From Candidatus Latescibacterota bacterium (GTDB lineage Bacteria > Latescibacterota > UBA2968 > UBA8231), in assembly GCA_965206595.1 (NCBI GenBank), contig OZ242214.1, forward strand, positions 3,648,001 through 3,712,000: a stretch of DNA of 64,000 nt, read 5' to 3'. The translations under genes and the position numbers were made by a program. Positions within the stretch are counted from its first letter, which is position 1. Each line of letters opens with the position of its first letter. Below are positions 30,809-56,329 of the stretch, piece after piece. The notes under the pieces are model-generated. The model did not search any database. It was given only the letters and a program-made list of their open reading frames with translations, and was not told the origin of the DNA.

Positions 30809-30846
30809 CGCCTGACGAGTAGCTGTCAGGTGCAGTGAGGAGTGGC

Positions 30847-30890
30847 AAGACCCGTGTCCCGCTTTGTGGGACGCGGGTCTTTTGTTTTCT
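30847..30890 (+). terminator. intrinsic terminator or intercistronic stem-loop
   Basis: AAGACCCGTGTCCCGC-ttt-GTGGGACGCGGGTCTT followed by TTGTTTTCT. Confidence 0.8.
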
Positions 30891-30904
30891 GGCGGGAGAC
30901 GACG

Positions 30905-33031: not shown

Positions 33032-33040
33032 GGTGGGTAA

Positions 33041-35107
33041 ATGCAAAGGAGCCATCGCCGCAAGGCCGGAAGGAACTTCTCGCTTGTGTGCGGCTGGATC
33101 GCGACCGTATGCATGGCGCATGCGGCCGTCGCGCTGGAAACGATCACCATCGGCAAGAATGCCCGAGTCGATTGGGATGGGTCGGGGTCGAGCTTTAGGA
33201 CCATCGATCCGGAATACCGCGCCTTACTAAATCCCAACGAAATCCTCACCGGCAACGTACCGGGCGCTTTGATCTACTTCGACCATCCGGATTCTCCGGG
33301 CAGTCTCATTCCCAGACAGCTCGAGGAGGGCGAGAATGTAGCCCTTGAGGCCGTAGCGCGAGGCGGCAAGATCGAGGCTCCAAACGACAACGCTGCCGTC
33401 AAGAAAACCCTGGAGGAGTTGCTTACCAACGAGGCTGGAGGAGAGCTCTTGGCCTATGAGATAAGGAACGCTAACGCAAACGGGGCGCTGATCGATGGCG
33501 ATCTGGGAGGCCGCTTTGGGGTCAGCCTGATCCGTTTCTACCCCCGCAACACCCTACAGCGTTCTCCATCAACGCCTTTTCATCAGGACTTTATGAGAGC
33601 GTACGAAGTCTACGTCAACGACGGGCTCAATCTCACCAAAGACGGCAATCCCGACTGGGGGGAACCTCTGTCGGAGAACAATGAAAACATCAACCCAGTG
33701 GTCGAGGTGAATCTCGACCCGCCCCAGTATATCCAGTCCTTCCGGCTCAAATCCAAATCGTCAGTCGATTTCGAGATCGACGAGATCGAGGTTTTCGGCA
33801 CCGGTTTTGTGCCCACCGCTCGGTACCTTTCCGATGTGTTCGACCTGGGCCTGGCCGCATGGGGCAACATTCGCTGGACCGAACGTGTCATAGGCGATTC
33901 GTCCCGGGCTCGTCTGCTGATCTCTACCCGCACCGGCAGGGACTCAACGGCGTTCGTGTACACGCGCACGCTGGCCGAGAAAGATGATGCCCCGGAAATC
34001 TCGACGTCGCTGCGCAACCGCGGCCAACCGATGACCCGGAAGGAATATCAAGCACTCCCCGAGAGCGACGCTACGGGCGTGGATTGGAAGGCTGGTTCGG
34101 TCAAGGACGATCTTGAAAGCTGGAGCCCCTGGAGCACGGCCTATCCGCCCGAGGGCAACACCACCGAGGGCACCCCGATACTGTCGCCGGGGCCCCGGCG
34201 CTACATACAGTTTCAGGTACTGGCTCTGAGCGAGAATCTGGCCTCAGCTCGTCGCCTGGACAACGTCTCCTTAGAGTATCTGGTGCCGCCTCTGGCCGAT
34301 CAGCTCGTGGTCGAAATATTCCCGCGCGAAGTAGAGGCCTCTACCATCACGACATTCACCTATGCGGTGCGCCCCACCATAGAGACCGACGGGCTGCTCG
34401 GTTTCGATGCCTTTGAGATCTCCACGCCCCTACGCGTCGAGAGTGTGGACCGCATCGAAATCCTGAATTCCGATGGATCGCTGGCGGCCAAACATGACTT
34501 CATTGCACAAGATCCCGACGCAGGCAGCCCCTTCGAGATCACGGCCATTGAGGACAATAGATTCGCCGTCCGCTTCCCGCTCGTCCTGGATAATAAGAGC
34601 CTCCTTAAGATCACCTTCCGAGCTGCAGTACTGGTTTACAGTACGAGTTTCAGCGGCAGTGCGTCCCTTTCCGCCGAGCCGGACGCCATCCAGACCGCCG
34701 TCCCGGGAGACGCCGCCAACCTGGGGGAAACCGACGACCCTACGCTGTCGGGAAATACAGTTTTCAGTCCCTCCATCCTCGAAGGTCGGCTGATCGATGC
34801 GTTCGAGACCGTCCCCAATATCATTACCCCGAACGGGGACGACATTAATGATGAAGTTGCCGTAGTCTACAATATTCTCAGCCTGACCAAAGCGGGCAGA
34901 GTGACGGTGCAGATCTACGATCTGGCCGGCAGACTGGTCCACACCCTGCTCGACGACGACGAGCGCAGTGGCCGCTACTTCCTTGAGTGGGACGGACTCG
35001 ACGCCGAGGGGAACCGTGCTCTTCCGGGCATCTATCTGCTCTCGGTCTCTGTAGACGGAGACAGTCGCAACGATGCGCAAATAAAACCCATATCCGTAGT
35101 CTACTGA
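33041..35107 (+). CDS. secreted protein with C-terminal FlgD/T9SS-CTD-like domain (paralogue 2)
   Basis: Same motif series: DLG..IRFYPR, STRTG, SPGPRRYIQ, ITPNGDDIND, IYDLAG, WDG, PGIY. Confidence 0.85.
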   Translation: MQRSHRRKAGRNFSLVCGWIATVCMAHAAVALETITIGKNARVDWDGSGSSFRTIDPEYRALLNPNEILTGNVPGALIYFDHPDSPGSLIPRQLEEGENVALEAVARGGKIEAPNDNAAVKKTLEELLTNEAGGELLAYEIRNANANGALIDGDLGGRFGVSLIRFYPRNTLQRSPSTPFHQDFMRAYEVYVNDGLNLTKDGNPDWGEPLSENNENINPVVEVNLDPPQYIQSFRLKSKSSVDFEIDEIEVFGTGFVPTARYLSDVFDLGLAAWGNIRWTERVIGDSSRARLLISTRTGRDSTAFVYTRTLAEKDDAPEISTSLRNRGQPMTRKEYQALPESDATGVDWKAGSVKDDLESWSPWSTAYPPEGNTTEGTPILSPGPRRYIQFQVLALSENLASARRLDNVSLEYLVPPLADQLVVEIFPREVEASTITTFTYAVRPTIETDGLLGFDAFEISTPLRVESVDRIEILNSDGSLAAKHDFIAQDPDAGSPFEITAIEDNRFAVRFPLVLDNKSLLKITFRAAVLVYSTSFSGSASLSAEPDAIQTAVPGDAANLGETDDPTLSGNTVFSPSILEGRLIDAFETVPNIITPNGDDINDEVAVVYNILSLTKAGRVTVQIYDLAGRLVHTLLDDDERSGRYFLEWDGLDAEGNRALPGIYLLSVSVDGDSRNDAQIKPISVVY

Positions 35108-40206: not shown

Positions 40207-43200
40207 TTAATAGGCGACGGCCACGATTCGGGACAAGGTCATATTGGCTGAATCATCTGCATCTACATCCAGGTGGAGCTGGCAGATATAGAGTCCGGGC
40301 GGGACCTTGAGCCCGGCATGGTCGACCCCCGACCAGCGCAACGCGTGCGCCCCCCCCCGCGCCAGCTCAGATCCTTCCCACACCCGTCGACCGTCCAGCC
40401 TGTAGATCCGCAAGCGCACCTGCCGGTCCGCTGTCACCTGAAACACGGAGAACGACACGGTCAGTTCATCGTTGATGCCGTCGCCATTGGGGGTGAAGGG
40501 ATTGGGCGTCAGCACCACGTCGTCGAGCACCTTGCCGCCCACGGGCACGCTGAGGGACAGGCCCCGGCCCTCGGTCAAGGCGGTGGCATCGCCGCCGTCT
40601 ACCTGCTGCCACACAGGTTCGCCCGCCGGCGAGAGCTGGTCGGACTTGCGCACCAGCGCCTGCAGGGTCGTATTGAGAAAGACCGTCGCTGCCACCCGCA
40701 CCTGCAGCAGGCGACCCCCGCCCCGGGTCGTGCCCCGCTCCGAGCGCGGCAGCCGGTCGTAGGCCTCCTTAGTAAGGGTGTCGCCGGGCACCGTGTTAGT
40801 CGGGGAGTCGGCCTGCATCGCGAAGGGGAACTCGGCTCCCGCGCCCGACAGCTTGCGAAAATAGCGGATGGGTCCTTGCTCCCCGGCAGGCAGTTCGTCG
40901 TAGGCAAAGTCGGCAACCTTCTCCAGTCGCACCTGGCCAGAATCGTCGGTGATCCGTTGGAAAAAGAGGATCTGGCCCCGCTCGTCCTCGGGCAAGAGCC
41001 CATAGGCCGCTTCGGACAGCACCTCGCCGTCGTGGCCGACCACGACCTGGTCGCCCTCATCGGTGATGCGGTGGTAGCGTTTGGGCACCAGTTCGGCGGG
41101 GGCGCTCTGCATCAGAGCCGGCATGCGAAACCCCACTGCGCCACCGCCGCGTTCCAGCAACTCCAGGGTGTCGCCGGCCGCGCTGGCAAAGACCTCGCCC
41201 GTGGGTTCAAAGACCTGAAAGGGCTGCTGCTGCAAGAACTCGGCTTCAGTGCCGGAGCGCACCCCTACCAGGCGCAGATCCAACTCGGCCGGTCCCTGCA
41301 GGCGAACCTCGTCGAAGCCGGGCGTCCGAAGGGCGGAGGGGGCGTCGACAAAAGTCGAATTAAGGTAGATATCAAAGGTATCCCGCAGCCCGGCAGTGGC
41401 ATGCTGCGGCCATATCTCGCCAGTGAGGCTGCGGGCGACAGGATCGAACATTTCCACCTCGATCGAGCTCAACGTTGCCGCTTTCTGGCGGTCGTGAGAA
41501 ATCAATCTGGCCTCGATCTGCATGAACTGCCGCAGGCTGGGCGAGGTTACAGGATCGCCCGGCTGCAGGTTTGGGCGACTCCACGCGCTCCAGCCACTAC
41601 CCACGGCAAAGGAGGTATCGATGGGGCCGCGAAACTTGGGAGGCAGCTCATCCCACTCTTCAAAGGTCTTAAGATCGATGCCCGTCGAGCTGAGGTAACG
41701 GATGTTTTCCACCAGCAGATCGCCGGTGCGGGTGCGGATTTCCACTTCGGTGCCGGGGGAGTGCTGCTCGGGACCTGGGCTCCAGCGTATGGCGCCCAGG
41801 TTGCGCTGCCCGGGCAGGCGGATGAATCCCGAGGTTATGCTCGCCTCGGCCACATAACCCGCCGAATACATCAGGAGCTCCCCCAGCTCAAATGAGTAGC
41901 CGCCTGCCCGGTAGTTGGTCGTTGTATTTCTCATCTCCAGGTAGCGCAGCTTGACCGGCGGGTCGTAGATGTCCGAGATGAAGACGAACTGGTTGATCAA
42001 ATTGTCCTCCCGCTCTCGGGGGCTGACCCTGCGCCACTTGAGCGCTCCCGTGGCATCCCGGGACCCGTCCGAGCCCCGCACGATATACCCTTCTATGAAC
42101 GTACCGTCTTTTCTTGAGATACCCATGGCAGATGCGACGCGGATGTTGTCCAGCCACATCAGCGCCCCCAGATCAACGGTCATCACCGCCCGATCACTGA
42201 CGTAGGGAGACCAGACCAGGAACCTGAAGGAGCTGCCAAAGTCGGCGTCGAAGCCGGACCCGGCCTTGTAGGGACCGGTCATGTCCACCGCCCCCCCCGG
42301 GCCCAGCACCCCCGGCGAAAGATTGTCGCCCCAACCCCACACTTCCACCTCGCTAAGCCGGGGCCGCTCGCGAACATAATACTCCTGCCTGCCCTGACGC
42401 TGTGGACCCAGACTCTCGTATATCTCCTGTGCCACCGGCTCCTCGAACCCGGCCTCGTCCCGGATGTAGTAGACGATCTCGCCCCGCTCCCCCGCGGGCA
42501 GCGCCTCCCACGCCGCCGGCGTCACCTGACGCCCCCGAAATCGCTTGCTGTCCGTCACCAACACCCGAATCGTCTCCACCATCCGCCCCGTCCAGGAGGG
42601 GTCCGTTCCCGGCTGGACAAACCGGGGCTCGCCCTGTGCCGTCAACTCGAAAACCCGCTGCTCGGTGTTCGGCGCAATCGTCCCGCCCACCACACTGAAA
42701 TTCCCCCACTGGTATTCGTTGGTCGAGCCAAACTCGCTCTCCTCCGTCAGCAGCACCCGCTGCTCCGGCGAAGCCAGCACCCGAAACTGGCGAAAGGGAT
42801 CCCCCTCGGCCTCGTCGACAAAGTGCAGCACCACCTTTTCGACCACTACCACCCGACCCAGGTCGATCTCCACCCACCAGTTGTCAGAAGTGTCCGCCAG
42901 GTCCGGTTCCCAATACGTCGACGGATCCCCATCGAGAACGTAGGCCGCAGAATCCACATTCGAACCCGCCCGGCTGATCCCCGGACGAACGAAATAGGCG
43001 TACTCGGGAAACTGCTCCTTGGATTTGGTCTCAAACGTCTGCCGCGAGCGAGCACCGGTGCGCTCGTTGCGCAAAGCAAGTGCTACCTCGTCGCCATTCA
43101 TCGTCGTGTCGGTGATGGTGAACACATCCCCGGCCAGGACGATGCGGGTGACATCGCTCGGAATGCGGCCGAAATCCTGGTCCAGGTACTTGCCGATCTT

Positions 43201-43566
43201 CTCCTCCGCCAGCTTGAGTTTCCCCTCCCGGTCAAAAACCGGCGTGCGATCCACCGTCCGGATGGTCCGGTCTGCCCCGCGGATCCTGGGCGCGTCGATG
43301 GGGCGCCGGAAGCTGGCCTGGTCCTCGGCCAGGATGTTGTAGACGTGCCGAAAAAAGTGGGGCCGGACCTGCCCATCGACGAGGTCCAGGACGTGTTCGG
43401 GCCGGCTCCACTGGGCCCAGTGCTCCTGGGTCTCGACGATAATCTGGGTGTCGGTGACGTCGGCCGACTGGGCTCGCGAGTGGAAAATGCCGAACCCCGC
43501 GATTGCCGCCCACGCCAGTCCGATCCGAAGCCATCTCATCGAGGAATTGACCTCTGTCCGCTGCAT
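40207..43566 (-). CDS. secreted protein with discoidin-like domains and C-terminal FlgD/T9SS-CTD-like domain (paralogue 3)
   Basis: DGDPSTYW..WVEIDLG; RTRTG; GEIWP; PNPFTPNGDGIND; PGLY; ends AVAY. Confidence 0.85.
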   Translation of the reverse strand: MQRTEVNSSMRWLRIGLAWAAIAGFGIFHSRAQSADVTDTQIIVETQEHWAQWSRPEHVLDLVDGQVRPHFFRHVYNILAEDQASFRRPIDAPRIRGADRTIRTVDRTPVFDREGKLKLAEEKIGKYLDQDFGRIPSDVTRIVLAGDVFTITDTTMNGDEVALALRNERTGARSRQTFETKSKEQFPEYAYFVRPGISRAGSNVDSAAYVLDGDPSTYWEPDLADTSDNWWVEIDLGRVVVVEKVVLHFVDEAEGDPFRQFRVLASPEQRVLLTEESEFGSTNEYQWGNFSVVGGTIAPNTEQRVFELTAQGEPRFVQPGTDPSWTGRMVETIRVLVTDSKRFRGRQVTPAAWEALPAGERGEIVYYIRDEAGFEEPVAQEIYESLGPQRQGRQEYYVRERPRLSEVEVWGWGDNLSPGVLGPGGAVDMTGPYKAGSGFDADFGSSFRFLVWSPYVSDRAVMTVDLGALMWLDNIRVASAMGISRKDGTFIEGYIVRGSDGSRDATGALKWRRVSPREREDNLINQFVFISDIYDPPVKLRYLEMRNTTTNYRAGGYSFELGELLMYSAGYVAEASITSGFIRLPGQRNLGAIRWSPGPEQHSPGTEVEIRTRTGDLLVENIRYLSSTGIDLKTFEEWDELPPKFRGPIDTSFAVGSGWSAWSRPNLQPGDPVTSPSLRQFMQIEARLISHDRQKAATLSSIEVEMFDPVARSLTGEIWPQHATAGLRDTFDIYLNSTFVDAPSALRTPGFDEVRLQGPAELDLRLVGVRSGTEAEFLQQQPFQVFEPTGEVFASAAGDTLELLERGGGAVGFRMPALMQSAPAELVPKRYHRITDEGDQVVVGHDGEVLSEAAYGLLPEDERGQILFFQRITDDSGQVRLEKVADFAYDELPAGEQGPIRYFRKLSGAGAEFPFAMQADSPTNTVPGDTLTKEAYDRLPRSERGTTRGGGRLLQVRVAATVFLNTTLQALVRKSDQLSPAGEPVWQQVDGGDATALTEGRGLSLSVPVGGKVLDDVVLTPNPFTPNGDGINDELTVSFSVFQVTADRQVRLRIYRLDGRRVWEGSELARGGAHALRWSGVDHAGLKVPPGLYICQLHLDVDADDSANMTLSRIVAVAY

Positions 43567-44852: not shown

Positions 44853-45452
44853 ATGAACTCCTCCAACGGACGACCGACAATCCGTCTCACCACAGCACAG
44901 GCCCTGGTCAAGTATCTGCAAGTTCAGTACAGCGAGCGTGATGGCAAGAGACATCGACTGATAAAAGGGGCATTTGGCATCTTCGGGCACGGCAACGTGG
45001 CCGGCCTGGGTCGGGCGCTGGCAAAGTTTGGTGCAGACCTTCCCTATTTCCAACCCTGCAATGAGCAATCGATGGTGCACACGGCGAGCGGCCATGCCAA
45101 GGCGACCCTGCGGATGTCCACCTTTGCCTGCCTGTCATCGATCGGGCCCGGCTCCACCAATATGTCAAAGGCGGATACAGTCAGGATCAATCGACTGCCG
45201 GTGTTGCTGATACCGGCCGATACTTACGCCACGCGTCACCGGGGGCCGGTGTTGCAGCAGTTTGAACATCCGATTTCCGCCGACGTGAGCGTCAACGACT
45301 GCTTCCGGCCGGTCAGCCGATTCTTCGACCGCATTTCCCGGCCTGAACAACTCCTTACCGCGCTTCCCGAAGGGAGGATGTGGAACGATTCTCGAACGAC
45401 TCCGACCCGAACCCGGTATCGATGTCCTGAATCCGTGAAGTCGAGAGCCTGA
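44853..45452 (+). pseudogene. iolD: truncated 3D-(3,5/4)-trihydroxycyclohexane-1,2-dione hydrolase (N-terminal fragment)
   Basis: TIRLTTAQALVKYL, GIFGHGNVAG, NEQSMVH, SIGPGSTN, NRLPVLL, NDCFRPVSRFFDRISRPEQL; similarity ends near 45372. Confidence 0.85.
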
Positions 45453-45519
45453 TTTTTGGTTGCTTACGATTAAATATCAAATTTTATCACTCGCTATAGA
45501 AGCGATCACGGATTCAGGG

Positions 45520-45868
45520 ATGTGTCTCGACACCGGCCATCACGCCTACCGCTACGGAGACTCCGTCGAACTGATGAGGAAGCATCACACGCGGATACGC
45601 TACTTGCACTTGAAGAGTGTGGATGCCGATAAGCGGGACGAGGTGAACGAGGGGCGCCGTTTCGTTTGCAGAGGCGATGGGGAACGACCTGTTCGTAGAA
45701 CTTCAGGACGGGGTGGTCGACTTCGAGGCCTTCGGCGATGTGCTGGCGGAGGTCGACTATGAGAGCTTCGGCATCGTCGAACAGGACATTTACCCGGCTC
45801 CGTTCGACAAGCCAATGCCGGTCGCCAAGCGCGCACGCGAATATCTTCGGGAGATCGGCATTGGCTGA
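45520..45868 (+). pseudogene. C-terminal remnant of an IolE/sugar phosphate isomerase-epimerase family gene
   Basis: CLDTGHHAY, YLHLKSVD, then after a frameshift F.EL..GVVDF, IVEQD. Confidence 0.75.
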
Positions 45869-46029: not shown

Positions 46030-46053
46030 GTGAGTTCCGAGGAGTGATTGCAG

Positions 46054-47229
46054 ATGAACGAGAGCGGGCGTGGCCTTTTCATCCTGATCGGCGGGTTCGC
46101 GCTGTTCGTGACCGCTCACACCATGCAGCTGAGTGTCGCCAGCCTGATCGGCGCTCAGTACGCCCCCGACAAATCGATGGCCACGCTGCCGCTGTTCACG
46201 GTGATGCTGGGTACGGCTCTGGCTACCGTACCGGCCTCCATGTTGATGAAGTACGTCACCCGTCGGACAGGTTTCACCTGCGGGTCCGTGCTGGCTATCC
46301 TGGGTGCAGGCACAGCCGTCTACGCGGTGCGAGCGGAGAACTTCTGGCTCTTCATCGTGGGGACGGGACTCATCGGCATGTTCAACGCCTTCTGCCAGCT
46401 CTACCGTTTCGCGGGCGCCGAACTGGTTCCACCCGAGCGCAAGGGCAAGGCCATCTCCTTCGTGCTCGCAGGCGGCATCCTCGGAGGACTGCTGGGCCCC
46501 AATCTGGAGGCGTTCTCCAGAGACTGGTTCGAGATCTCCTTTATGGGCCCGTACGTCGTCATCGTCTGTATCGGATTTCTCAACATCATACTCATGAGCT
46601 TTCTCGACATGGGCAAGCCGCCCGGCCAGCTGGACGATCTCTCCCAGCGGCCGCTGGGAGAGATCGTCCGGCAGCCCGTCTTCATCGTGGCGGCGATGAG
46701 CGCGATGGTGGCCTTCGGGGTCATGGCCAGCTTCATGGCAGGATCACCGCTGATCATCCAGAAATTCCACCACAGCCACCACCAGGCTACCTCCGCCATA
46801 TCCATCCACACAATGTTGATGTATACGCCCGCACTCTTCGTCGCAGCCCTCATTGCCCGTTTCGGCATCCTCAATATCATCGGAACCGGAATCGTCTTCC
46901 AAGCGACGGGTTTTATCGTCCTCTATGCGGGCAAGAGTTACACACACTTCATGGCGTTCATGATCCTGCTGGCACTCGGCTGGTCCTTCATGTTCATCGG
47001 CGGCACCGCCCTTGCGACCCGGGCCTACACACCGGTGGAGCGCCCCAAGACGCAGGCCCTCCACGATTGCATGCTCTTCACCTGGGTCGCTGTGTGCGCC
47101 TTGTCCAGCGGCTGGCTGGATCACGCCTTCGGCACCAACGCCCTGCCGGTAGCGGCCATCAGCCTCCTGCTACTGACCACCTTGGTCATCTTGCTGTTGA
47201 GGAAACGGGCGGCGGCTACGCCGGCATGA
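46054..47229 (+). CDS. MFS transporter
   Basis: About 12 TM helices; ATLP, YRFAGAE, KAISFVLAGG..G..GP, LIARFG, LGWSF.FIGGT. Confidence 0.9.
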   Translation: MNESGRGLFILIGGFALFVTAHTMQLSVASLIGAQYAPDKSMATLPLFTVMLGTALATVPASMLMKYVTRRTGFTCGSVLAILGAGTAVYAVRAENFWLFIVGTGLIGMFNAFCQLYRFAGAELVPPERKGKAISFVLAGGILGGLLGPNLEAFSRDWFEISFMGPYVVIVCIGFLNIILMSFLDMGKPPGQLDDLSQRPLGEIVRQPVFIVAAMSAMVAFGVMASFMAGSPLIIQKFHHSHHQATSAISIHTMLMYTPALFVAALIARFGILNIIGTGIVFQATGFIVLYAGKSYTHFMAFMILLALGWSFMFIGGTALATRAYTPVERPKTQALHDCMLFTWVAVCALSSGWLDHAFGTNALPVAAISLLLLTTLVILLLRKRAAATPA

Positions 47230-47301: not shown

Positions 47302-48591
47302 TCAGCCTATTGTCCCCGGCGTCGACGGCCTGTCCCACAGAGGCTGGTTATGTTGCGCGTCGCCGCCAATGTCGATGGCTTCTTCCACCTGCTGCTCGCT
47401 GAAACGAGACAGGAGGAAGGGTTCGATCGGCACCGGTGGCTCTTTGCCAACAATCAAGGCGGTGAGAATCTCGGCTGTAATCGGGGCATTGAGGATACCT
47501 GTTCTGAAGTGCCCGGTGGCGTTGAGGTAGCCCCCGCAGCCGTCAACCGGTCCCAGGATGGGCAATTCGTCCGGGCTGCCGGGCCGGAATCCCGCCCACG
47601 CACGCTTGACCCCCACATCAATCAGGAAAGGCAGGCATCGCACCGCGCCGCGCACGAGGTCGATCATGGCGGAATGTGTAACGCCGTATTCGAATCCCAC
47701 CTTTTCAGTGGTGCTGCCGACGAGAATCTCGCCGTTACCCTTCTGTACAAGATAGCAGTCGCTGGTGGAAACGCTAGCTTCCAACACATCGGTAGGCAGG
47801 GTCTCCGTGCAGACGATCTGGCCGCGCACGGGGTACACGGGAATCCTTATGCCTGCCGACTCCGAGATCTGATCCGCCCAGGCACCGGCCGCATTTACCA
47901 CCCAGTCAGCGTGCAGGCGCCCGGCGGACGTTTCGGCTCCTACCACTCTTTCTCCATGCCGGATCAGACCGGTCACCTCGGTGTGCGTCAGGATCCTGGC
48001 CCCACGTTTGCCAGCTCCGACACGCAGGGCATCGGCGAACTTGTAGGGGTTGATCTGATTGTCACCTATCATGCGCAAAGCACCGCGGCTGTCTCGATTT
48101 ATCGCCGGTTCTAGTGCCGCGAGGTCGCTGGCTGAGAGTAATTGCATGGACTCTGCGGCGGCGTCATTGCCTGACATCAGCGTCTGGGCAAACATCTCGT
48201 CCGTCTCGTCGAACATGACGAACAGCAGGGAGTTTTCCTCATACTCCACATCGATTCCCGTCACTTGCTCGAGCTCTTCTGCCAGGGGCTTCAACCGGGT
48301 GTTGCTCTCGAGAGAAAAATTCAGGAAGCATTGCGGCAGCGGATCGAGGCCGTGCATGCCATCGCGCTCCATCTTTCCCTCGGCGACGAGGGCTTTGAAG
48401 AAGATCACTCCGCAGCCTAGGCCCATCGACTCGCCCACGGGCCACAGACCGCCGGCAGAGGCCGAGGTGGCGCGGCCTCGCCTGGGTTGGTCCACGAGCG
48501 TAACGGCCAGTCCCCGACGGGAGGCGTAGTAGGCCACGGCGCTGCCGATGACGCCTCCCCCCACGACGAGGACGCTCTGTGAGTCACTCAT
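47302..48591 (-). CDS. hcnC: hydrogen cyanide synthase HcnC-like FAD-dependent oxidoreductase
   Basis: GGGVIG FAD motif; GRATSASAGGLWPVGESMGLGCGVIFF (HcnC-type insert); PVRGQ; RPGSPDELPILG; GHFRTGIL. Confidence 0.82.
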   Translation of the reverse strand: MSDSQSVLVVGGGVIGSAVAYYASRRGLAVTLVDQPRRGRATSASAGGLWPVGESMGLGCGVIFFKALVAEGKMERDGMHGLDPLPQCFLNFSLESNTRLKPLAEELEQVTGIDVEYEENSLLFVMFDETDEMFAQTLMSGNDAAAESMQLLSASDLAALEPAINRDSRGALRMIGDNQINPYKFADALRVGAGKRGARILTHTEVTGLIRHGERVVGAETSAGRLHADWVVNAAGAWADQISESAGIRIPVYPVRGQIVCTETLPTDVLEASVSTSDCYLVQKGNGEILVGSTTEKVGFEYGVTHSAMIDLVRGAVRCLPFLIDVGVKRAWAGFRPGSPDELPILGPVDGCGGYLNATGHFRTGILNAPITAEILTALIVGKEPPVPIEPFLLSRFSEQQVEEAIDIGGDAQHNQPLWDRPSTPGTIG

Positions 48592-48614
48592 GACCACCCC
48601 CGTATCTCGTCTCG

Positions 48615-50123
48615 TCAACCAGCGGGGGAGGGCGGGGGGTCAGGGTCGCCGAGTTCGATCGGCGGCAGTCGACATCGGGCCAGTTCCCCCATGGTCACCG
48701 GCTTGACCGGGGGTTGCGGGTTGGCGCGCCCGCAAGTTTCAGGGGGACTGGATAGCTTGCCACTCATGTAGAGGGCGCAGGCAGGCCCGCAGTAGCGTCC
48801 CTGGCAGGGCCCCATGCCAAGACGGGTCGCCAGTTTGACCGATTGCAAATCGCGCGCGCCCCTGCCATCCACGGCCACATCCACATCGCTGCGACGTACC
48901 TCCTCGCAGCGGCACATGACGGTCCCCTCGTCTGCCAGCTTGGCCAGTCCGAAACGCAACCGGGACAGCTCGTCCAGGTAGCGCCTGGGCCGAGCGAGCG
49001 AGCGAAGCTTCTTCATTGGCTTCGCAAGGCGAGCGGCGGCCTCCGCATGTTCGAGCGCGCCCAGTTGTTCAGCTGCGATGATGCCGGCCACGCGTCCCTC
49101 CTGCTCAGCTACCAGCGACCCGGCAACGCCGCTGCTGTCGCCAGCCGCAAGAACACCAGGCACCGTCGTACACATGAGCTCATCTCTGACCGGAACCCAC
49201 CCGCCCAGCGCTTCGTCGTAGCGGTGCTGGCAGCCCGCGAGAGTGGTCAGCTCGGTGTTGGGTACGAAGCCATAGCCGACGACGAGCAAGTCCACATCAA
49301 CACGGTTGGATTTCTCGAAGTCAGGCGTCCAATCGGGCAAGTTGACCGGGCCGTAAGCGACGCTTTCGACCGCCCCGGCCCCATCGGCTTTGAAGACGAC
49401 GTGGTTGTACAACAATGGGATACCGTGGCGGCGCAGACCACTGAAGTAACCCCAGGCGTCTCTCATTAGATTGCCGTGGCCGAGCAAGGCACCCGCAGCC
49501 CTCACCTTGCCAGGCCGTCGACCAGCTTCCAGGACCGCCACGACTTCCACACCGGAATCCGCGAGCTGGTTGGCGACCACCAGAAGCAATGGACCGGTCC
49601 CGGCAACAAGGGCGCGCTTGCCCGGACGGATCCCCATGGTCTTGACGAGGCTCTGCACACCGCCTGCCGCCATCACCCCCGGTAGTGTCCAGCCTGGAAA
49701 GGCCACCGGTCGGTCATACGCTCCCGTGGCGATGATCAACTTGCTCGTGGCGAGAATCTCGCAGCCGTCGTCGCCACCACACAGAATCCTCGGGGTTGGA
49801 TCGATCCACACCCCGAGCACCGCTGTGTTCGACATGCGTTCCACCCCGTCGGCACTGGCCTCGAATTCATCGCGCAGGGCCTCGCCTCTGACGAAGTCCT
49901 TGCTTTCTCGGTGTTTTTCCCCAGGGCTGAATTCGCCGGGCATGCAGCGATAGATCTGTCCTCCAAGCGCCGGGGCCTCGTCGACGAGTGTGCATTCCCG
50001 CACGCCGGACTTCGCTGCTTCAACTGCCGCGCACATTCCCGCAGGACCGCCGCCGATGATGACGAGCTGTCTCTCGCGGGACGCGGGACCCATCCCGGAC
50101 GGCTCCTCTTGGTCGCCGCTCAT
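48615..50123 (-). CDS. hcnB: HcnB-like FAD/NAD(P) oxidoreductase with a BFD-like [2Fe-2S] tail (in frame with the upstream HcnA part)
   Basis: IIGGGPAG, GGQIYR, ATGAYDRPVAFPGWTLPGVM, GTGPLL, AAGD, CRCEEV, TRLGMGPCQGRYC. Confidence 0.8.
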   Translation of the reverse strand: MSGDQEEPSGMGPASRERQLVIIGGGPAGMCAAVEAAKSGVRECTLVDEAPALGGQIYRCMPGEFSPGEKHRESKDFVRGEALRDEFEASADGVERMSNTAVLGVWIDPTPRILCGGDDGCEILATSKLIIATGAYDRPVAFPGWTLPGVMAAGGVQSLVKTMGIRPGKRALVAGTGPLLLVVANQLADSGVEVVAVLEAGRRPGKVRAAGALLGHGNLMRDAWGYFSGLRRHGIPLLYNHVVFKADGAGAVESVAYGPVNLPDWTPDFEKSNRVDVDLLVVGYGFVPNTELTTLAGCQHRYDEALGGWVPVRDELMCTTVPGVLAAGDSSGVAGSLVAEQEGRVAGIIAAEQLGALEHAEAAARLAKPMKKLRSLARPRRYLDELSRLRFGLAKLADEGTVMCRCEEVRRSDVDVAVDGRGARDLQSVKLATRLGMGPCQGRYCGPACALYMSGKLSSPPETCGRANPQPPVKPVTMGELARCRLPPIELGDPDPPPSPAG

Positions 50124-50444
50124 GCGGCTGCCGGTGCCGAGCCCAAATACTTCGTTGTTGTCGTTACGGAGTGCCATGCCGTCTCGCACCGGAAGATTGC
50201 ATGTACGCACGTTGGGCCGACCGTCCACCGTGAGGACGCAATCGAAACAGTTGCCGATTCCGCAGTACGGACCGCGGGCTTCACCCAGCCGGCTCTTCCT
50301 GAAAGCTCTGACCCCGGCTGCCATGAGCGCCGCGGCGACGCTCTCGCCGCTGAAAGCGCGTATCGGCCTGTCGTCGAGATAGATCGTCATCTCAACGCCG
50401 CGAGTTGCGGACCCGTGGATTCGGCTGTTGCGATCCTCATTCAC
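50120..50444 (-). CDS. hcnA: HcnA-like [2Fe-2S] subunit (read through into hcnB in this sequence)
   Basis: GESVAAAL, YCGIGNCFDC..VDG...RTC..PVRDGM. Confidence 0.78.
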
Positions 50445-50780
50445 CGCTCGGTGCGACTCCCGCCTGCCTGCCGGCTTTGGAAGGGGGATGTAACAGAACT
50501 CGGTCGATTTCCGAGTGCCGGCAACATCCCGTTACTGTGGTGGCGATCGGGAACGCATACGCGCCATGGCATCGCCTCATTGTCCTTCTACAGGATAATT
50601 CATGGCACCGTGGGAAGTCCAGAAATTGGACCGCGCACCGCCGGCAATTCGGAGTCGGAAACGCGGGGCAACTGCCGGGGCTCTAATTGAGACCGGCTGC
50701 CAACCTTGGTATTATGGTTGTATGCTCTGAGCTTTTCCTCAAATCCATCAGGGTCGTTGTCGATCGCGAGGGATGAGCCT

Positions 50781-52460
50781 GTGAAATTATTAAGCGGCTG
50801 TTTTACCCTGTCAGTATTCGCGTTTAGCGGATGCGGCGAACCGCCGGATGCCATCGTTGCCGATGTGGGTGAGGAAGCCATCAGGGCGTCCTCTCTTCTC
50901 GACTTGGTGGCCGCTCTGCTGCCCGGACAGCGGACGGATAAAACCGGGGACGAGGCCCGGCGGCACTATCTGCAGATTCTGGTAGACGGTCGCCTGCTCA
51001 TTCTGGAGGCAAGCAATCGCGGGATCGACACGACACAGCCCGTGGAGAAGGCGGTGAGAGAAGCGGTCGACGAAAAGGTTCGCGCCCTGTACCGTTCGAA
51101 AATGCCGGCCGGAGCCCCGGTAACCGAGGCAGAGATGCGCCAATTTTTCGAGCGCGAGGAATTCGACAGGGAGCGGAACCTGAGCAGGATCGTGGCGCGG
51201 GACCGCGCAAGCATGGACAGGTTGGTCGAGAAGCTCAAGTCCGGAGAGCCTTTCGAGGAGGTCGCCCGGTTCCATTCCATCGACCGACAGGCGGCGCAGC
51301 AGGGGGGGGAGCTGGGATACGTCACGCGCCCCGCGCTTGACATGCACCCCGTCCTGGCCAGGCTGCAAATTCCACCCGACCTGTTCCAGTCGCTGGCCGA
51401 AGGCGAGGTGTCCGTGCCGGTACCGACTACCGGGGGAGCCTGGCAGGTGGTTCGCTTCACGGATAGCAGGCCCGCCGAGTTCGAGAAATACGCAGGGTTG
51501 ATCAAAAAGCAAATGAGTAAACAGCGGCGATTTTGGGCCTACGAGGAACACCTGGAGGTGCTCGAAAACACTTACCGTGTGCGCCTGGACTGGACCGGTC
51601 TGACGGAACTGACAAAGGCCTTCCCTGCGCGAAATTCCGGCGCCCTGGCGGCCAGTTCCACTCCCTTGTACCACTACGATCGAGGCAGGGTCACCGTGGC
51701 CGAGGCCAATGAGGCTCTGCGGGCTTCCAACCTCAGGCGGGCCTTCGCTGACACCGCAGAAGCCGGGCAGGTGATTCGAACCTATGTAATGGGTCCGCGC
51801 CTCATCGAGCTTGCGGCGAGGGATGAGGGGCTGTATGAAACCACGGACATCCGCAAGTTCCGAAAGCAGAAGCGGGAAGCGCTACTGGCCGAACATATAA
51901 GGAGCCATGCCATAGCGGACATCGAGGTAACCGAGGAGGAAGTCCGGCAGTACTACAACGCCAACCCCGAACTGTTCCTCGACGAGGGATATGCTCATGT
52001 AGAGGAATTGCTGCTGTCGTCCAAAGCCGCAGCCGCGAAAATTCGAGCCCGGATCGCGTCAGGAGAAACATTCACCGATCTTGCAGCCCACAGCCTGCGC
52101 CCCGACCCGCATGGCGACGCCAAGTTTCACCTCCACCCGAAACACAGGCGGGTCTATCCCAAGTTATGGACCGCCATCGAGGCAGCGACCGACGGCGAGT
52201 TGACGGGGCCTGTCGAGGTAAGTGGCGGATACACCCTTTTCCGTGTGCTGGAGCGAGTGCCCGAAAGCAAGCAGCCGTATGCCCAGGCGCACCCCAGAGC
52301 GCGCGCCCTGCAGCTGCGGCTGCGGCAGGGCGAAGAGTTTGAGGGGCTGATCTCCCGGCTGCGGGAGAAGTACAGGGCCCAGGTGGTGGTGCATGAGGAA
52401 AAGTTGACCGAGGCGCTGCCGGACAGCTTGCTTCAGGTTTGGTCGGGGAATGGGCAGTAG
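50781..52460 (+). CDS. SurA/PrsA-like lipoprotein with two parvulin (PpiC) domains
   Basis: FSGC lipobox; GEPFEEVARFHSID...GGELGY; second GETFTDLA...GPVEVSGGY. Confidence 0.85.
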   Translation: MKLLSGCFTLSVFAFSGCGEPPDAIVADVGEEAIRASSLLDLVAALLPGQRTDKTGDEARRHYLQILVDGRLLILEASNRGIDTTQPVEKAVREAVDEKVRALYRSKMPAGAPVTEAEMRQFFEREEFDRERNLSRIVARDRASMDRLVEKLKSGEPFEEVARFHSIDRQAAQQGGELGYVTRPALDMHPVLARLQIPPDLFQSLAEGEVSVPVPTTGGAWQVVRFTDSRPAEFEKYAGLIKKQMSKQRRFWAYEEHLEVLENTYRVRLDWTGLTELTKAFPARNSGALAASSTPLYHYDRGRVTVAEANEALRASNLRRAFADTAEAGQVIRTYVMGPRLIELAARDEGLYETTDIRKFRKQKREALLAEHIRSHAIADIEVTEEEVRQYYNANPELFLDEGYAHVEELLLSSKAAAAKIRARIASGETFTDLAAHSLRPDPHGDAKFHLHPKHRRVYPKLWTAIEAATDGELTGPVEVSGGYTLFRVLERVPESKQPYAQAHPRARALQLRLRQGEEFEGLISRLREKYRAQVVVHEEKLTEALPDSLLQVWSGNGQ

Positions 52461-52626
52461 TGCCGTGTACATTGGACCAATCCTCCGCAAGGGTTCTCAG
52501 CCGAGCGCACCCGAACCGGCCGCCGCACCTGTGGCCAAGACCATTTCGGCGCCTACGGCGGGGGGCTATTTCAATTAGATTGGCGGCGGGAGGGTTCAGG
52601 ACAATCAGCGGCAAACAGCCAAACAG

Positions 52627-53305
52627 GTGGCCGCCGGCCAATTCAACCGAGTTGGGGCGGCGGCGCCCTGGCGAACCCCGAGGAAGGCCGAACGAGAACG
52701 CACCCGCAGGATTTGTTTTTCGCGAGATTGTGGCCAATCCCGTGGTGATTCAGGTCACCACCGCACTCTTGGACGAGGGAATCTTCAACAGCTTTTACAA
52801 CGGAAACACCAATTGTCCCGGCAGCGGCACCCAGCCGTTGCACCGGGACGGACCCCATCTACGGCCGGGTCACGAGCCCCACCCGACCGCGTGCGTGGAG
52901 GTGAGTATCTCTCCGCTCGATGTGACGGAAGAGAACGGGGCAGTGGAGCTGTGGCCGGGCACGCATCTGCACAGCTTCCCGGAAACCGTGATCGACAAGG
53001 AAACCGAAAAGGCGCAAAGAGAGGTTTCTCCCCCGGTAAGCGGGTGCGCGAAAAAGGGAAGCGTGCTCATCCGGGAGGTGCGGCTCTGGCATAGAGGGGC
53101 TCCGAATCGCTCGGGTCGGCCCGCGGCATACGATTGCCTGGTCCACTGCATCTCCTGGTACCGGAATCGCGGACCGCTGATGTTCAATACCGGTTGTGAA
53201 GATGCCTTTCCCGATGATTGCGGTTTGAATCACACAGCGGAATTCACCGAGGATTCGATCGACTTTCTGTTTCGGAATCGGGCTGAAAGTGGAAAGAAAA
53301 GATGA
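52627..53305 (+). pseudogene. phytanoyl-CoA dioxygenase (PhyH) family, N-terminally degraded
   Basis: IVANP, GNTNCPGSGTQPLHRD (HxD), NGAVELWPGTH, GSVLIR..RLWHRG..NRS; no credible N-terminus. Confidence 0.7.
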
Positions 53306-53352
53306 AGGGTTGAGGGAGGAAGGCGATGGACTCACAGGATGGGAACTGAACG

Positions 53353-54183
53353 ATGACGGCTCCAAATGGGTGGATTCCCGCCGAGGGCAGTCTGACTGGG
53401 ATTTCGGAAAAATTCCCGCGGCCTCTCGAGGCGCTGGTGGCGGGCGAAACACCTGGAATCGTACTGCGCGAGGCCTTCGATCCCGATCACTGCGCCGGCC
53501 TCGTGAAGCGGCTCTACCAACGCGGCCTGGCATACGACCCCCGTCCTGCCGGGGACGGAGGGCGCCCCGTTTACGTCGGTCCCCATCTGGCCGGGCTGAA
53601 TGCCGACCCGGAGGAGTTCTTCGCCCGCGCCGCCGACACTCACCGGCTGTTCAAGAGCCTGTTCAACGGGTACGACGATCCGGTGAAGACCTTTTACGAT
53701 GCCCTGTCAGGCCTGGCGCCCGACAAGCGGGTGATGACCGCCCGCGAGCCGGATGGACGCCTCTACGGACCGGCGGTCTTCCGCATTTACTATTCCGGCG
53801 CCGGACACGGACCGCACTTCGACTCCGTGGCAAAGCGGCAGAAGTTGTACGACTACCAGGTGTCGAGGTTCCGGAACCAGTTGGCCGGGGTGATGTGCTT
53901 TCAGAACTCCGGGCAGGAAGGGGAGTGCGGAGAGCCTTTCCTCTACAACTGCCCCTGGACTCCCGCGGTGCAGAGATACATAACTGATGGCACGTTCGGG
54001 AAGTACGCCGCGGAGCGGGAAATCCCCCGGGTTCAGATCCAGCTCGAGCCGGGCGACCTGTACTTCTTCTTCTCCGAAAACATCCACGAAGTACCTCCGG
54101 TCACGGGGGAGAGGCCGCGTATCGTGCTTGCGGCTTTCTTCGGCATGTCCCCCGACGACGAGGAGATTTTCGTCTGGTCGTAA
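53353..54183 (+). CDS. Fe(II)/2-oxoglutarate-dependent oxygenase-like protein
   Basis: FRIY..G.GHGPHFD (HxD), PGDLYFF..ENIHEV...G.RPR. Confidence 0.75.
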   Translation: MTAPNGWIPAEGSLTGISEKFPRPLEALVAGETPGIVLREAFDPDHCAGLVKRLYQRGLAYDPRPAGDGGRPVYVGPHLAGLNADPEEFFARAADTHRLFKSLFNGYDDPVKTFYDALSGLAPDKRVMTAREPDGRLYGPAVFRIYYSGAGHGPHFDSVAKRQKLYDYQVSRFRNQLAGVMCFQNSGQEGECGEPFLYNCPWTPAVQRYITDGTFGKYAAEREIPRVQIQLEPGDLYFFFSENIHEVPPVTGERPRIVLAAFFGMSPDDEEIFVWS

Positions 54184-54237
54184 TGATGCAGTTGCCGCGT
54201 GCCCAAGGCGGAACGCGCGCACCGAAAGGAACGACAA

Positions 54238-55335
54238 ATGAAAATTGCGAAAGTCGAAACGTTCCAGATCGAAACCCCGCGCCATTACCAGGAACACCCG
54301 GTCAAAACTGGGGAATCGACCGGCCACGTCATTGTCAAGCTCCACGTCGACGACGGGCTCGTAGGACTGGGGGAGGCGCCGGACAGCCGGGCCGACGACC
54401 TGGGCGCCATTGCAGTGCGTTACAACGACCTGCTGGTCGGACGCGACGCCACCCGTATTACCGAAATCAACGAATTCCTGAGGACGCAGGACTTTGCCAG
54501 CACGGTGAGCAACCCGCACCTGACCGCGGCCATCGACCTGGCGCTCTACGACCTCAACGGCAAACTGCAGGGGGTGCCGGCCTATCATTTACTGGGCGGA
54601 AAAATGCGGGAGAATGTGTACTTCTGTTATCCGATCATCGGGGAACACCTGCAGGGAGGTTTCGAGCGGAACGCCAGCTACCTGCAGCGGCTGGTCGATC
54701 TGGGGCACCACCTGTTTCGCTACTACATCTCGGGCGACAGCGATCTGGACGACCGTTTTTTAAGCGAGATGAAAGCACGCTTCGGTGAGAAAATCCGCCT
54801 CAAAGCCATCGATTTCAGCGGGAGTTTCCCGGATTGGGAGACCGCCCTGCGCTACGCCGATGCCCTGCGTCATCACGATCCGTACAACTTCGAGCAGCCG
54901 TCGAACGACCTGCGGGTGTGCGCCGATTTCGTCAAGCGGGTGGACGTGCCGGTGAGTCAGCATATCCGCAGCCTGGAAGAAGGCTACGAGGCGATCCAGC
55001 GGGGAGCCTGCACCGTCCTCAACCTGGCGTGGATCTGGTGGGGGCCGACCTACGTCCGCCGCATGTTCGCGCTGGCGGAAGCCGCTGGTTTCAAGACCTT
55101 CCTTTCCACCGATCAGGATTCGACCGTCGGGACGGCTGGGGCCGTTCACCTCGGGGTTTCGGTTCCCAACCTCGACCTTCCCTCGGATCCGGCCGGCCCC
55201 CTGCTGTATACGGTTTCGCCTGCCAGGGAGCGGATCCGCACCGAGAACAGCCACCTGTATCCGCCGCAAGGCCCCGGGCTGGGGGTCGAGCTGGACGAGG
55301 ACAGGATGAGAGAGCTGACGGTGGCCTCAGCGTGA
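54238..55335 (+). CDS. enolase superfamily acid-sugar dehydratase, galactarate dehydratase (D-threo-forming, GalrD-II)-like
   Basis: HVIVKLH.D.G..G.GE, CYPI, FRYY (R-x-Y dyad), DFS, FEQP, VSQH, SDPAGPLLY, GLGVELDE. Confidence 0.8.
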   Translation: MKIAKVETFQIETPRHYQEHPVKTGESTGHVIVKLHVDDGLVGLGEAPDSRADDLGAIAVRYNDLLVGRDATRITEINEFLRTQDFASTVSNPHLTAAIDLALYDLNGKLQGVPAYHLLGGKMRENVYFCYPIIGEHLQGGFERNASYLQRLVDLGHHLFRYYISGDSDLDDRFLSEMKARFGEKIRLKAIDFSGSFPDWETALRYADALRHHDPYNFEQPSNDLRVCADFVKRVDVPVSQHIRSLEEGYEAIQRGACTVLNLAWIWWGPTYVRRMFALAEAAGFKTFLSTDQDSTVGTAGAVHLGVSVPNLDLPSDPAGPLLYTVSPARERIRTENSHLYPPQGPGLGVELDEDRMRELTVASA

Positions 55336-55432
55336 CCAGGCGTACGTTTTGGTCACTGCCATGCCGCCGGGTACGGAAAGATTCCGGAAGTGAGAGTCGG
55401 CCGGTAGTTATTTACCAGGAAGGTTCGGGACG

Positions 55433-56329
55433 ATGGTAAAGCTGGCTCGAGGTATCTGGCCGGCGCTCTGCACGGCGTTCGACGACCGTGGAGAGCGCGT
55501 CGACGGCGATCGTCAAAGGGCCCTGGTCAGGGCGCTGATCGACACCGGGATCCAGGGATTCTTCGTCTGCGGTGGAACCGGCGAGGGCAGGGCGATGTCC
55601 TTGCCGGAGCGCCAGGAGGTGGCCGAGGTCGTCGCCCGTGAAGTGGCCGGCGAGGTGAGAATCATCCTGCAGGCAGGCGGCACGTCCACGGATAACGCCG
55701 TCGAGCTGGCGCGGCACGCCGCGCGCCTTAAGGGAGTCGATGCGGTCGCCTCGGTGGCGCCTGTGGATGCTCCAAACGACCTCGGCGCCGCGGTCTCCCA
55801 CTACGCCGCCGTCGGGGCCGCGACCGACCTGCCGTTCTACGTGTATTGGCTGAAGCACGAGGCCGATACCAGGGCCACGGCCGATAACTTTCTCGAAGCA
55901 ATGCAGGAAGTCCCGAACTTCGCGGGGGTGAAGTTCACCGACCACAACCTCTATCTCTTCGGACAGCTCATCGACCGCTCAGGCGGCGGTATAAACGCCG
56001 TTTCCGGGCCGGATGAAATGGCCTTGCCGGCGATGGTAATGGGCGCGGACGCCGCCATCGGAACCACCTACAACGTCATGCCGGAGATTTTTCTGCAAAT
56101 GCGCCGCGCTTTCGATTCAGGCGATCTGGCCGCCGCCCGGTGCTGCCAGGTGCAGGCTAATCGCGTTATCCGACTGCTGCTCGAAGTCGGTGCGCTGCCG
56201 GGAGTAAAGCAGATGCTCGCGGACCGCGGCACCCCGGTGGGACCGACGCGGATCGTCCCGCCGCTCGACGGCGCCGCGAAGATCGCGCTGCGTGCCGGTC
56301 TCGAGCAGCTGGACATCGACATTCGCTGA
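55433..56329 (+). CDS. DapA/NanA family aldolase
   Basis: CGGTGE, PFYVY, GVKFT, SGPDE, AIGTTYN. Confidence 0.88.
   Translation: MVKLARGIWPALCTAFDDRGERVDGDRQRALVRALIDTGIQGFFVCGGTGEGRAMSLPERQEVAEVVAREVAGEVRIILQAGGTSTDNAVELARHAARLKGVDAVASVAPVDAPNDLGAAVSHYAAVGAATDLPFYVYWLKHEADTRATADNFLEAMQEVPNFAGVKFTDHNLYLFGQLIDRSGGGINAVSGPDEMALPAMVMGADAAIGTTYNVMPEIFLQMRRAFDSGDLAAARCCQVQANRVIRLLLEVGALPGVKQMLADRGTPVGPTRIVPPLDGAAKIALRAGLEQLDIDIR

Follow-up and report, generated by a model that had tools for sequence, protein, structure and literature searches.

An HcnABC-family gene pair, predicted to encode a hydrogen cyanide synthase, in a non-proteobacterial genome

Cyanide of biological origin tends to be ascribed to a small number of proteobacteria, and a cyanogenic-looking locus in another kind of bacterium raises the question of whether it belongs to the hydrogen cyanide (HCN) synthase family at all, and if so, whether HCN is its product. 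Such a locus lies in a 64,000-nucleotide stretch of contig OZ242214.1 (the window, to which all coordinates without a locus label refer), where an earlier reading of the letters alone – the original prediction – had placed an hcnABC operon at 47302..50444 in an apparently non-proteobacterial host. Judged by its sequence, the locus, hcnAB-hcnC, truly belongs to the HcnABC family, and its genome is non-proteobacterial. What is established is its domain make-up, its cofactor motifs and family insert, the grouping of its C subunit with HcnC proteins, and an A-B-C order that is conserved. We think it probable, though well short of certain, that the pair encodes a flavin/iron-sulfur glycine dehydrogenase of this family, i.e. 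a hydrogen cyanide synthase.

The predicted limits coincide exactly with the outer limits of two adjacent open reading frames (ORFs) on the minus strand:

48615..50444, minus strand: hcnAB, fused HcnA-HcnB protein of 609 amino acids with a GTG start, assigned by Pfam and alignment

47302..48618, minus strand: hcnC, subunit dependent on flavin adenine dinucleotide (FAD) with a glycine-oxidase fold, assigned by Pfam DAO, tree and AlphaFold2 model

The predicted order of modules, A then B then C on one strand, is confirmed by the Pfam domains. The predicted number of genes is not, because A and B form one continuous frame joined by a linker, and the unit has two genes rather than three. The fusion is a variant of gene structure that leaves the domain order unchanged, and we do not treat it as a defining feature. 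For hcnAB, translation could instead begin at an ATG inside the frame, at residue 19. The hcnC ORF as listed has 438 amino acids and a TTG start overlapping the upstream hcnAB TGA by 4 bases, but its start is probably the ATG at 48591, because this is preceded by GGGGG with a 5-nt spacer and gives a 429-amino acid HcnC, the same length as its relatives P0002 and P0004. The hcnAB stop lies 23 bases ahead of this likely ATG.

HcnC matches Pfam DAO over residues 16-388 (E 1.2e-69) and has the ADP-binding motif GGGVIG, in which G20-G22 and G25 are invariant or nearly so in the alignments. The peptide to which the original prediction had drawn attention, SAGGLWPVGESMGLGCGVIFF, occupies residues 54-74 in the hcnC ORF, within the following feature:

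48334..48459, minus strand: HcnC-specific insert, residues 54-95 (alignments A1, A3 and A4)

The insert is about 30-40 residues long, is placed after the FAD-binding beta-alpha-beta unit, contains one invariant cysteine (C69), and has a conserved core, GGLW..GES.GLGCGVI, at residues 56-72 of the window HcnC. Written as GG[LT]W..GE[SA].GLGCG[VI]I – a family criterion derived from the present alignments rather than from the literature – the core is found in 80 of 81 HcnC-like locus rows and in 117 of 120 protein matches (homologues of C and of AB are counted throughout among the 120 matches listed for each), and in none of the 7 outgroup rows; the sole miss among the loci is L045, which has a disturbed gene call. 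The insert occurs in window C and in the Pseudomonas (P. chlororaphis and P. brassicacearum), Chromobacterium and Gemmataceae rows, and in none of the ThiO, OoxB, NoxB, Cupriavidus or Paenibacillus rows. The form in Pseudomonas and Chromobacterium (L046, L071 and L067), ASAGGLW.IGES.GLGCGVIFF, is the same as that of the window, and the claim that this insert recalls Pseudomonas HcnC and not ThiO or opine oxidases is well founded.

Every row of alignment A4 keeps the arginine of the RPG motif (R345 in window C), which presumably anchors the substrate carboxylate. An AlphaFold2 model of HcnC, built from 29 aligned sequences, has a mean predicted local distance difference test score (pLDDT) of 84.2 and a predicted template modelling score (pTM) of 0.85, with lower confidence over the insert (pLDDT 57-76). 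Its best fold matches in the PDB are glycine oxidases (4ysh, 3if9, 1ng3 and 1ryi; TM 0.88-0.91), and the next best is the Pyrococcus horikoshii proline dehydrogenase beta subunit (1y56_B); no HCN synthase structure is among the PDB sequence or fold matches of HcnC or HcnAB.

A genome scan gave at least 381 confirmed relatives among at least 601 pattern matches, and the best 80 loci were kept; gene counts at these loci refer to ORFs with family matches, and simple greedy calling made spurious antisense ORFs in loci of high G+C. Fifty-nine of the 80 are classical gamma/beta-proteobacterial loci, from many Pseudomonas (among them P. fluorescens, P. chlororaphis and P. brassicacearum), Chromobacterium, Janthinobacterium, Pseudoalteromonas, Marinomonas, Photobacterium and Shewanella, whose HcnC is 44-48% identical to window C over its full length, insert included. 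The other 21 are non-classical and mostly closer to window C (53-60% identical for the closest, and 41-52% for six outliers). Still closer relatives of window C, 80-93% identical, lie outside these 80 loci. Window C is 32-34% identical to ThiO and 23-30% identical to OoxB-type rows. An HcnB-like gene stands directly upstream of the C gene on the same strand at 79 of the 80 loci, and an HcnA-like gene precedes the HcnB-like gene at 77, the exceptions being L017 (at a contig end), L021 and L045. Thirty-one of the C matches carry names, and for 25 of them one annotation source uses 'hydrogen cyanide synthase HcnC'. The rarity of the system outside proteobacteria that had been implied is not borne out: 17 of the best 80 loci come from the Planctomycetota, Actinomycetota, Acidobacteriota, Chloroflexota, Gemmatimonadota and Myxococcota, and both HcnB/HcnC names and HCN clusters in metagenome-assembled genomes (MAGs) already exist.

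Comparison of the C subunit with opine and proline dehydrogenases had been set beforehand as the check on its identity. The seven outgroups are three ThiO, ooxB and noxB of Agrobacterium-type plasmids, a Cupriavidus gene from a B-(2Fe-2S)-A cluster, and a Paenibacillus gene of a hydroxyproline-type cluster; SoxB is judged by model scores and PDB E-values rather than as a tree row. A first quick tree has 53 rows (the window, 8 protein matches, 36 of the 80 loci, L001 and the 7 outgroups), and a careful maximum-likelihood tree has 42, leaving out L083, L017, L021, L009, L055, L076, L066, L081, P0092, L002 and L011. In the careful tree window C lies inside the HcnC family (36 rows; bootstrap and Shimodaira-Hasegawa-like approximate likelihood ratio test support 97/89), apart from ThiO (3 rows, 97/90) and from the OoxB/NoxB/Cupriavidus group (3 rows, 100/100), as the original prediction had expected. 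Within the family, the window forms a group of its own with P0001, P0002, P0004 and P0010 (5 rows, 100/100), and the classical proteobacterial loci form a clade (14 rows, 100/100); how these two and the multi-phylum rows relate to one another is not settled by the tree (32-row set, 96/59). Two quick trees agree with this picture. The outgroup branches are long in the careful tree, and placement in the HcnC family therefore rests also on the insert, the model scores and the other comparisons that follow.

The C proteins were also scored against the ThiO model TIGR02352 (cut-off 250.8). Window C reaches 254.5 bits, in two split stretches that match model positions 54-350 only. For HcnC of Pseudomonas and Chromobacterium the score is 228-235 bits and the match begins near position 50, and multi-phylum HcnC-like rows score 249-257, whereas true ThiO proteins score 337-363 bits over positions 1-350 and OoxB scores 120. 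On this model window C thus behaves as genuine HcnC does and not as ThiO does, and by these sequence comparisons the ThiO match is a resemblance common to known cyanide synthases; it does not discriminate, because HcnC proteins known to be cyanogenic match the model to the same degree. The C proteins of L006, L003, L018 and the window all lie at 249-257 bits on this equivalog model, yet they lack the N-terminal ThiO match and have HcnAB partners. As the scores of the multi-phylum proteins straddle the cut-off, automatic annotation is liable to label some of them as glycine oxidase ThiO.

The AB protein contains the following parts:

50157..50390, minus strand: HcnA-like [2Fe-2S] domain (Fer2_4, residues 19-96; Pfam E 2.4e-25)

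50070..50156, minus strand: A-B linker of about 30 residues (~97-125; alignment A2)

49122..50069, minus strand: HcnB-like FAD/NAD(P)-binding domain (Pyr_redox_2, residues 126-441; Pfam E 9.6e-23)

48774..48920, minus strand: BFD-like [2Fe-2S] domain (Fer2_BFD, residues 509-557; Pfam E 1.6e-07)

Along its length HcnAB aligns in turn with two separate proteins, HcnA followed by HcnB, both in P. chlororaphis (L046) and in Chromobacterium (L067). The four cysteines of the HcnA part (C-x4-C-x2-C ... C, residues ~60-84) align in every HcnA row of alignment A2, the dinucleotide-binding (ADP-binding) motif GGGPAG of the B part aligns with HcnB of L046, L067, L001, L006 and L018, and the BFD cysteines (C-x-C ... 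C-x3-C) align in all HcnB rows; the Fer2_BFD match overlaps a match to the sarcosine-oxidase domain SO_alpha_A3. The alignment also took in HcnA and HcnB of Salinivibrio, Gemmataceae and Gemmatimonadaceae, and the window protein retains the HcnA cysteines, GGGPAG and the BFD cysteines. The linker has no counterpart in separate HcnA or HcnB rows and differs among the fused relatives P0123 and P0127. PMC2504479, citing Laville 1998, singles out the four cysteines of HcnA and the ADP-binding motifs in the B and C subunits as important for HCN synthase.

The fusion of A and B is real and no assembly slip, because 9 of 120 AB homologues share the same Fer2_4 plus Pyr_redox_2 architecture (P0121-P0129; 591-617 amino acids, 52-98% identical); the remaining 111 are of 454-507 amino acids and HcnB-like only, and 8 of the B homologues are named HcnB by one source's annotation. 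Nor is it a rarity, a suggestion that we considered and rejected. A search of 1.84 billion cluster representatives gave 1489 AB-like proteins at E 1e-30 or better, and among the best 150 of these, which were inspected, 34 are 520-700 amino acids long, 33 of them with the four-cysteine motif near the N-terminus. A further 20 of the best 150 have at least 700 amino acids; none of the 20 has the HcnC motif, and a DAO domain is added in all 6 that were scanned with Pfam. Fusion of these modules is thus common across the wider superfamily and unremarkable by itself. PDB sequence matches of HcnAB to PH1363 (1y56_A) and sarcosine oxidase alpha (1vrq_A) begin at query residue 14, and the fused layout is therefore one that these alpha subunits already have.

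Two kinds of related arrangement were seen alongside. Single-chain fusions of Fer2_4, Pyr_redox_2 and DAO, or of Pyr_redox_2 and DAO, occur in P0370, P0378 and P0391 (about 985-1001 amino acids) and in P0375, P0410 and P0490 (731-898 amino acids); they are 36-45% identical to window AB over the matched part, and the HcnC insert motif is missing from their DAO portion, which places them in a different, unnamed branch of the superfamily. In Marinomonas (L074:6256-7992 and L076:6238-7974) hcnA and hcnB share a frame and are parted only by the hcnA stop codon; tblastn reads them as one match, but with this in-frame stop they are not counted as fused.

The host is probably Latescibacteria- or Gemmatimonadetes-like, to judge from its proteins, and the prediction of a non-proteobacterial host agrees with this. 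All four organism-named proteins among 120 listed matches of the window threonine synthase (ThrC) are from Candidatus Latescibacteria (three, 71-74% identical) or Gemmatimonadetes (one, 73%). Several large window proteins end in CHU_C or FlgD_ig domains of the type IX secretion kind and carry FG-GAP/ASPIC repeats. As a comparison of proteins rather than a phylogenomic placement, this fits an organism of the Fibrobacteres-Chlorobi-Bacteroidetes (FCB) group and not a proteobacterium. One relative's contig carries a 75% identical ThrC (P0280) together with HcnC (P0002) and HcnAB (P0123), and a second carries another 75% identical ThrC (P0295) and HcnAB (P0124), so that relatives of the window organism also have the fused system.

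Among known systems, HcnABC of Pseudomonas (P. fluorescens/protegens and P. aeruginosa) and Chromobacterium has the same three modules in the same order, with the same four-cysteine HcnA and B and C ADP-binding motifs. Identity to the window is 44-48% for C, 33-35% for B and about 31-34% for A. Unlike these systems, the window pair has A and B fused, belongs to a separate branch of the family and a non-proteobacterial host, and has no ANR/FNR-type box upstream: the site TTGAT-N4-ATCAA was not seen upstream of hcnAB on reading the sequence. The same two-gene layout, hcnAB plus hcnC, is described from genome mining for Heimdallarchaeia (Asgard archaea) among 60 HCN clusters in vent MAGs (Nat Commun 2026, PMC13635244); these archaeal clusters are likewise predictions, and we liken them to the window by gene layout and not by sequence. 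Clusters of the antiSMASH class 'hydrogen-cyanide' appear in archaeal peat MAGs (PMC13642348), and hcnABC is surveyed in cold-seep MAGs by a further study.

The non-classical relatives differ from the classical ones in their neighbours. A heavy-metal P1B-type ATPase gene (TIGR01525, 509-574 bits) adjoins the hcn genes at 8 of the 21 non-classical loci (L002:1-1209, L005:4988-7189, L006:2260-5655, L007:2893-5418, L011:1144-3213, L016:1541-5838, L018:433-4845 and L019:2036-5929), co-directional and separated by short gaps wherever the arrangement was examined; the linkage is found at none of the 59 classical loci, and not in the window. Five of the eight also have a MerR-like gene (the L016 regulator scores 153 bits against the MerR cut-off of 150.85), and DsbD_TM membrane proteins and HMA domains occur at these loci as well. 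In L016, from the isolate Tautonia sociabilis GM2012, the genes stand in the order merR, dsbD-like, P1B ATPase, hcnA, hcnB, hcnC. HcnC-like proteins of ~486 amino acids with a C-terminal HMA domain and its CxxC make up 9 of 120 C matches (P0042, P0049, P0056, P0071, P0077, P0084, P0089, P0101 and P0112), and such a protein is encoded at L018:6586-8046. At L005:2644-3765 and L011:6829-7953 a permease gene (373-374 amino acids; the copies are 81% identical) stands between hcnB and hcnC; its resemblance to the SO_0444 Cu/Zn efflux and SaoE models is weak, with scores far short of either cut-off. Mobile-element genes lie near two of the metal-linked hcn operons – Prim-Pol and AAA_25 at L018:11229-13240, and KfrA_N and a phage-type integrase at L019:12281-14834 – which suggests that these two travel on islands or plasmids. 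Taken together, the gene neighbourhoods suggest that at least part of the non-classical HcnABC branch may serve metal handling; in a literature search that covered few subscription journals, no paper linking hcn genes to metal operons was found.

The surroundings of the pair in the window are of a different kind:

46048..47229, plus strand: major facilitator superfamily (MFS) transporter, convergent with hcnC across a 72-base gap (Pfam MFS_1 E 2.5e-26)

50445..50705, no strand assigned: hcnAB-PPIase intergenic region, the presumed promoter region, with no recognised element

50706-52460, plus strand: divergent peptidylprolyl isomerase (PPIase) gene, bounding the pair upstream

The MFS transporter was considered as a conserved partner and set aside, a homologue (30% identity, E 6e-53) standing beside hcnABC at one of 88 loci (L055, Pseudoalteromonas). 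In the region upstream of hcnAB there is no minus-strand sigma-70-like site, and consensus promoter and terminator sites are no more frequent than in shuffles. Rhodanese and nitrilase genes were dismissed as regular hcn neighbours, each occurring at one locus (L001 and L008, respectively) and neither in the window; at L008:9553-10554, from an Actinomycetes MAG, a carbon-nitrogen hydrolase of the nitrilase superfamily directly follows hcnC, and at that locus only.

Beyond the PPIase gene, plus-strand genes at 52439-56329 encode PhyH-like, WelO5-like (2-oxoglutarate/Fe halogenase/hydroxylase family), MR_MLE enolase-superfamily and DHDPS-family proteins, none with a specific NCBIfam model above cut-off. 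On the far side, upstream of the MFS gene, there are two apparent gene remnants at 44853-45762. One covers the N-terminal 164 residues of the 616-residue IolD model (248.6 bits); the other, which stays under the gathering score, is a weak match to the C-terminal part of a xylose-isomerase-like TIM barrel. They point to DNA having been lost or rearranged in the past next to the MFS-hcn block. At 3601-9933, 22378-24138, 26216-28165, 30842-35107 and 40207-43566 the window encodes a series of very large proteins of secreted type, with FG-GAP/ASPIC, Big_5 and F5/8 type C domains plus CHU_C/FlgD_ig domains at the C-terminus. The G+C content is 0.50 at 26001-28000 and 0.57-0.71 elsewhere; that of the first 18 kb, at 0.65-0.71, is markedly above that of the middle.

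How would such a pair work as an HCN synthase? HcnC, with its glycine-oxidase fold and FAD, would first withdraw an electron pair from glycine, leaving iminoacetate; a further two-electron step, in which CO2 is lost, would produce HCN. The fused HcnAB would carry the electrons away over its [2Fe-2S] centres and the second flavin and pass them on towards the respiratory chain. Both cyanide-synthase chemistry in general and the biochemistry of the Pseudomonas enzyme reportedly follow these lines. Glycine as substrate, HCN as product, a complex of AB with C, and the nature of the electron acceptor are here ascribed to the window system by analogy with its family.

Several observations weigh against cyanide as the product, or speak for a respiratory-linked dehydrogenase of glycine or another small amino acid that would halt at the imine, yield glyoxylate and ammonia for catabolism, or dehydroglycine for thiazole as ThiO does, and set no cyanide free. 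Window C narrowly passes the ThiO model, and its closest solved relatives are glycine oxidases of the ThiO type (4ysh, 1ng3 and 1ryi; E 1e-41 to 1e-38). Genes for cyanide tolerance were not seen: rhodanese, nitrilase, cytochrome bd and enzymes of the beta-cyanoalanine synthase/cysteine-synthase type are absent from the 38 of 46 window ORFs that were scanned, where the single PALP enzyme is the threonine synthase (597.7 bits), and a tblastn search of the window with the rhodanese and CN-hydrolase of related loci gave nothing below E 0.1. Upstream of hcnAB there is no riboswitch, the glycine riboswitch included, or other Rfam family. The window's group is a branch apart from the experimentally known gamma/beta-proteobacterial clade, and the same literature search found no cyanide assay of HcnABC outside Pseudomonadota, or for the window's clade. 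Against an enzyme that halts at the imine, known cyanogenic HcnC is equally ThiO-like by the model, the insert dividing HcnC from ThiO is preserved nearly letter for letter, and the gene sits in close linkage with one for HcnAB, a partner that ThiO does not have. ThiO, moreover, forms its own group in the tree, and its gene is followed by thiS and a thiazole synthase gene (thiG) at two of three loci (L086 and L087, but not L088), whereas no thi genes (thiS or thiG) are among the scanned window ORFs. We therefore regard an imine-forming enzyme as unlikely, although it deserves some weight, and continue to favour HCN synthase.

The metal-linked operons at the 8 non-classical loci count against cyanide synthesis of the familiar kind in another way, hinting, from gene neighbourhood, at a role and possibly a chemistry other than those known from Pseudomonas. 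Cyanide, or some other product, might act as a ligand for metals of the Cu/Ag/Au/Hg type in a metal-handling response rather than in chemical warfare. The P1B-type ATPases, MerR-family regulators, DsbD_TM proteins and HMA domains that accompany sister hcn genes, and the HMA-tailed HcnC-like proteins, all point that way. However, tblastn searches of the window with ATPase, MerR, DsbD_TM, permease and HMA queries gave no match, and the window's group is a separate branch, so that for the window pair itself we give this role only a slim chance. A broader form of the idea, in which the multi-phylum, largely non-proteobacterial HcnABC branch, fused version included, supplies cyanide as a soft-metal (Cu, Ag, Au, Hg) ligand alongside P1B-type ATPases under MerR-type control, with the stand-alone hcnAB-hcnC beside the MFS gene as a derived, uncoupled form, is speculative and in our view distinctly doubtful. 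An opine, D-hydroxyproline, proline or sarcosine dehydrogenase (of the OoxAB/NoxAB, LhpBEF, PDH1 or SoxAB type) serving nearby catabolic genes is nearly excluded, and we allow it a very slight chance. Such heteromeric enzymes are of the same superfamily with the same cofactor domains: OoxAB/NoxAB of Agrobacterium plasmids have three modules including a small (2Fe-2S) protein, and the alpha subunits of P. horikoshii L-proline dehydrogenase (1y56) and heterotetrameric sarcosine oxidase (1vrq and 2gag) have the fused Fer2_4-like then Pyr_redox_2 layout of window AB, with beta subunits of the DAO fold. MR_MLE and DHDPS-family genes, moreover, lie 4-6 kb off, and the Paenibacillus hydroxyproline-type cluster (L083) also has a DHDPS-family gene. 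But the OoxAB/NoxAB-type systems are ordered B-(2Fe-2S)-A and not A-B-C, OoxB is 23% identical to window C, and OoxB, NoxB and the Cupriavidus B-type protein group far from it; they, the Paenibacillus protein and the beta subunits of 1y56 and sarcosine oxidase lack the insert. The similarity of those alpha subunits to window AB is low (85 bits), and SoxA has an extra C-terminal half. Family models give soxB 79.9 against a cut-off of 529.45, soxA 125.6 against 1164, and D-proline dehydrogenase 47.3 against 600. A hydroxyproline or sugar-acid catabolic link was likewise rejected, as the MR_MLE, DHDPS, PhyH and WelO5-like genes have no model above cut-off (the cis-3-hydroxy-L-proline dehydratase model gives 53 against 500) and lie on the opposite strand past the PPIase gene.

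HCN synthase is thus the function that we favour for hcnAB-hcnC, and the locus adds one predicted member to a family that is already widely reported by one source's annotation and by antiSMASH-based surveys. By their sequences, HcnABC-like genes are common outside proteobacteria. If such enzymes are active, cyanide production would be widespread in soil, sediment and water bacteria of many phyla, and would affect how their communities respire, mobilise metals and cycle nitrogen; and if the metal-linked cyanide idea is true, organisms of the Latescibacteria/Gemmatimonadetes group would be cyanogenic. The window locus is a compact two-gene version of the system that is easily cloned and tested, and the repeated linkage of its sister genes to heavy-metal efflux operons, outside the window, is the more interesting lead.

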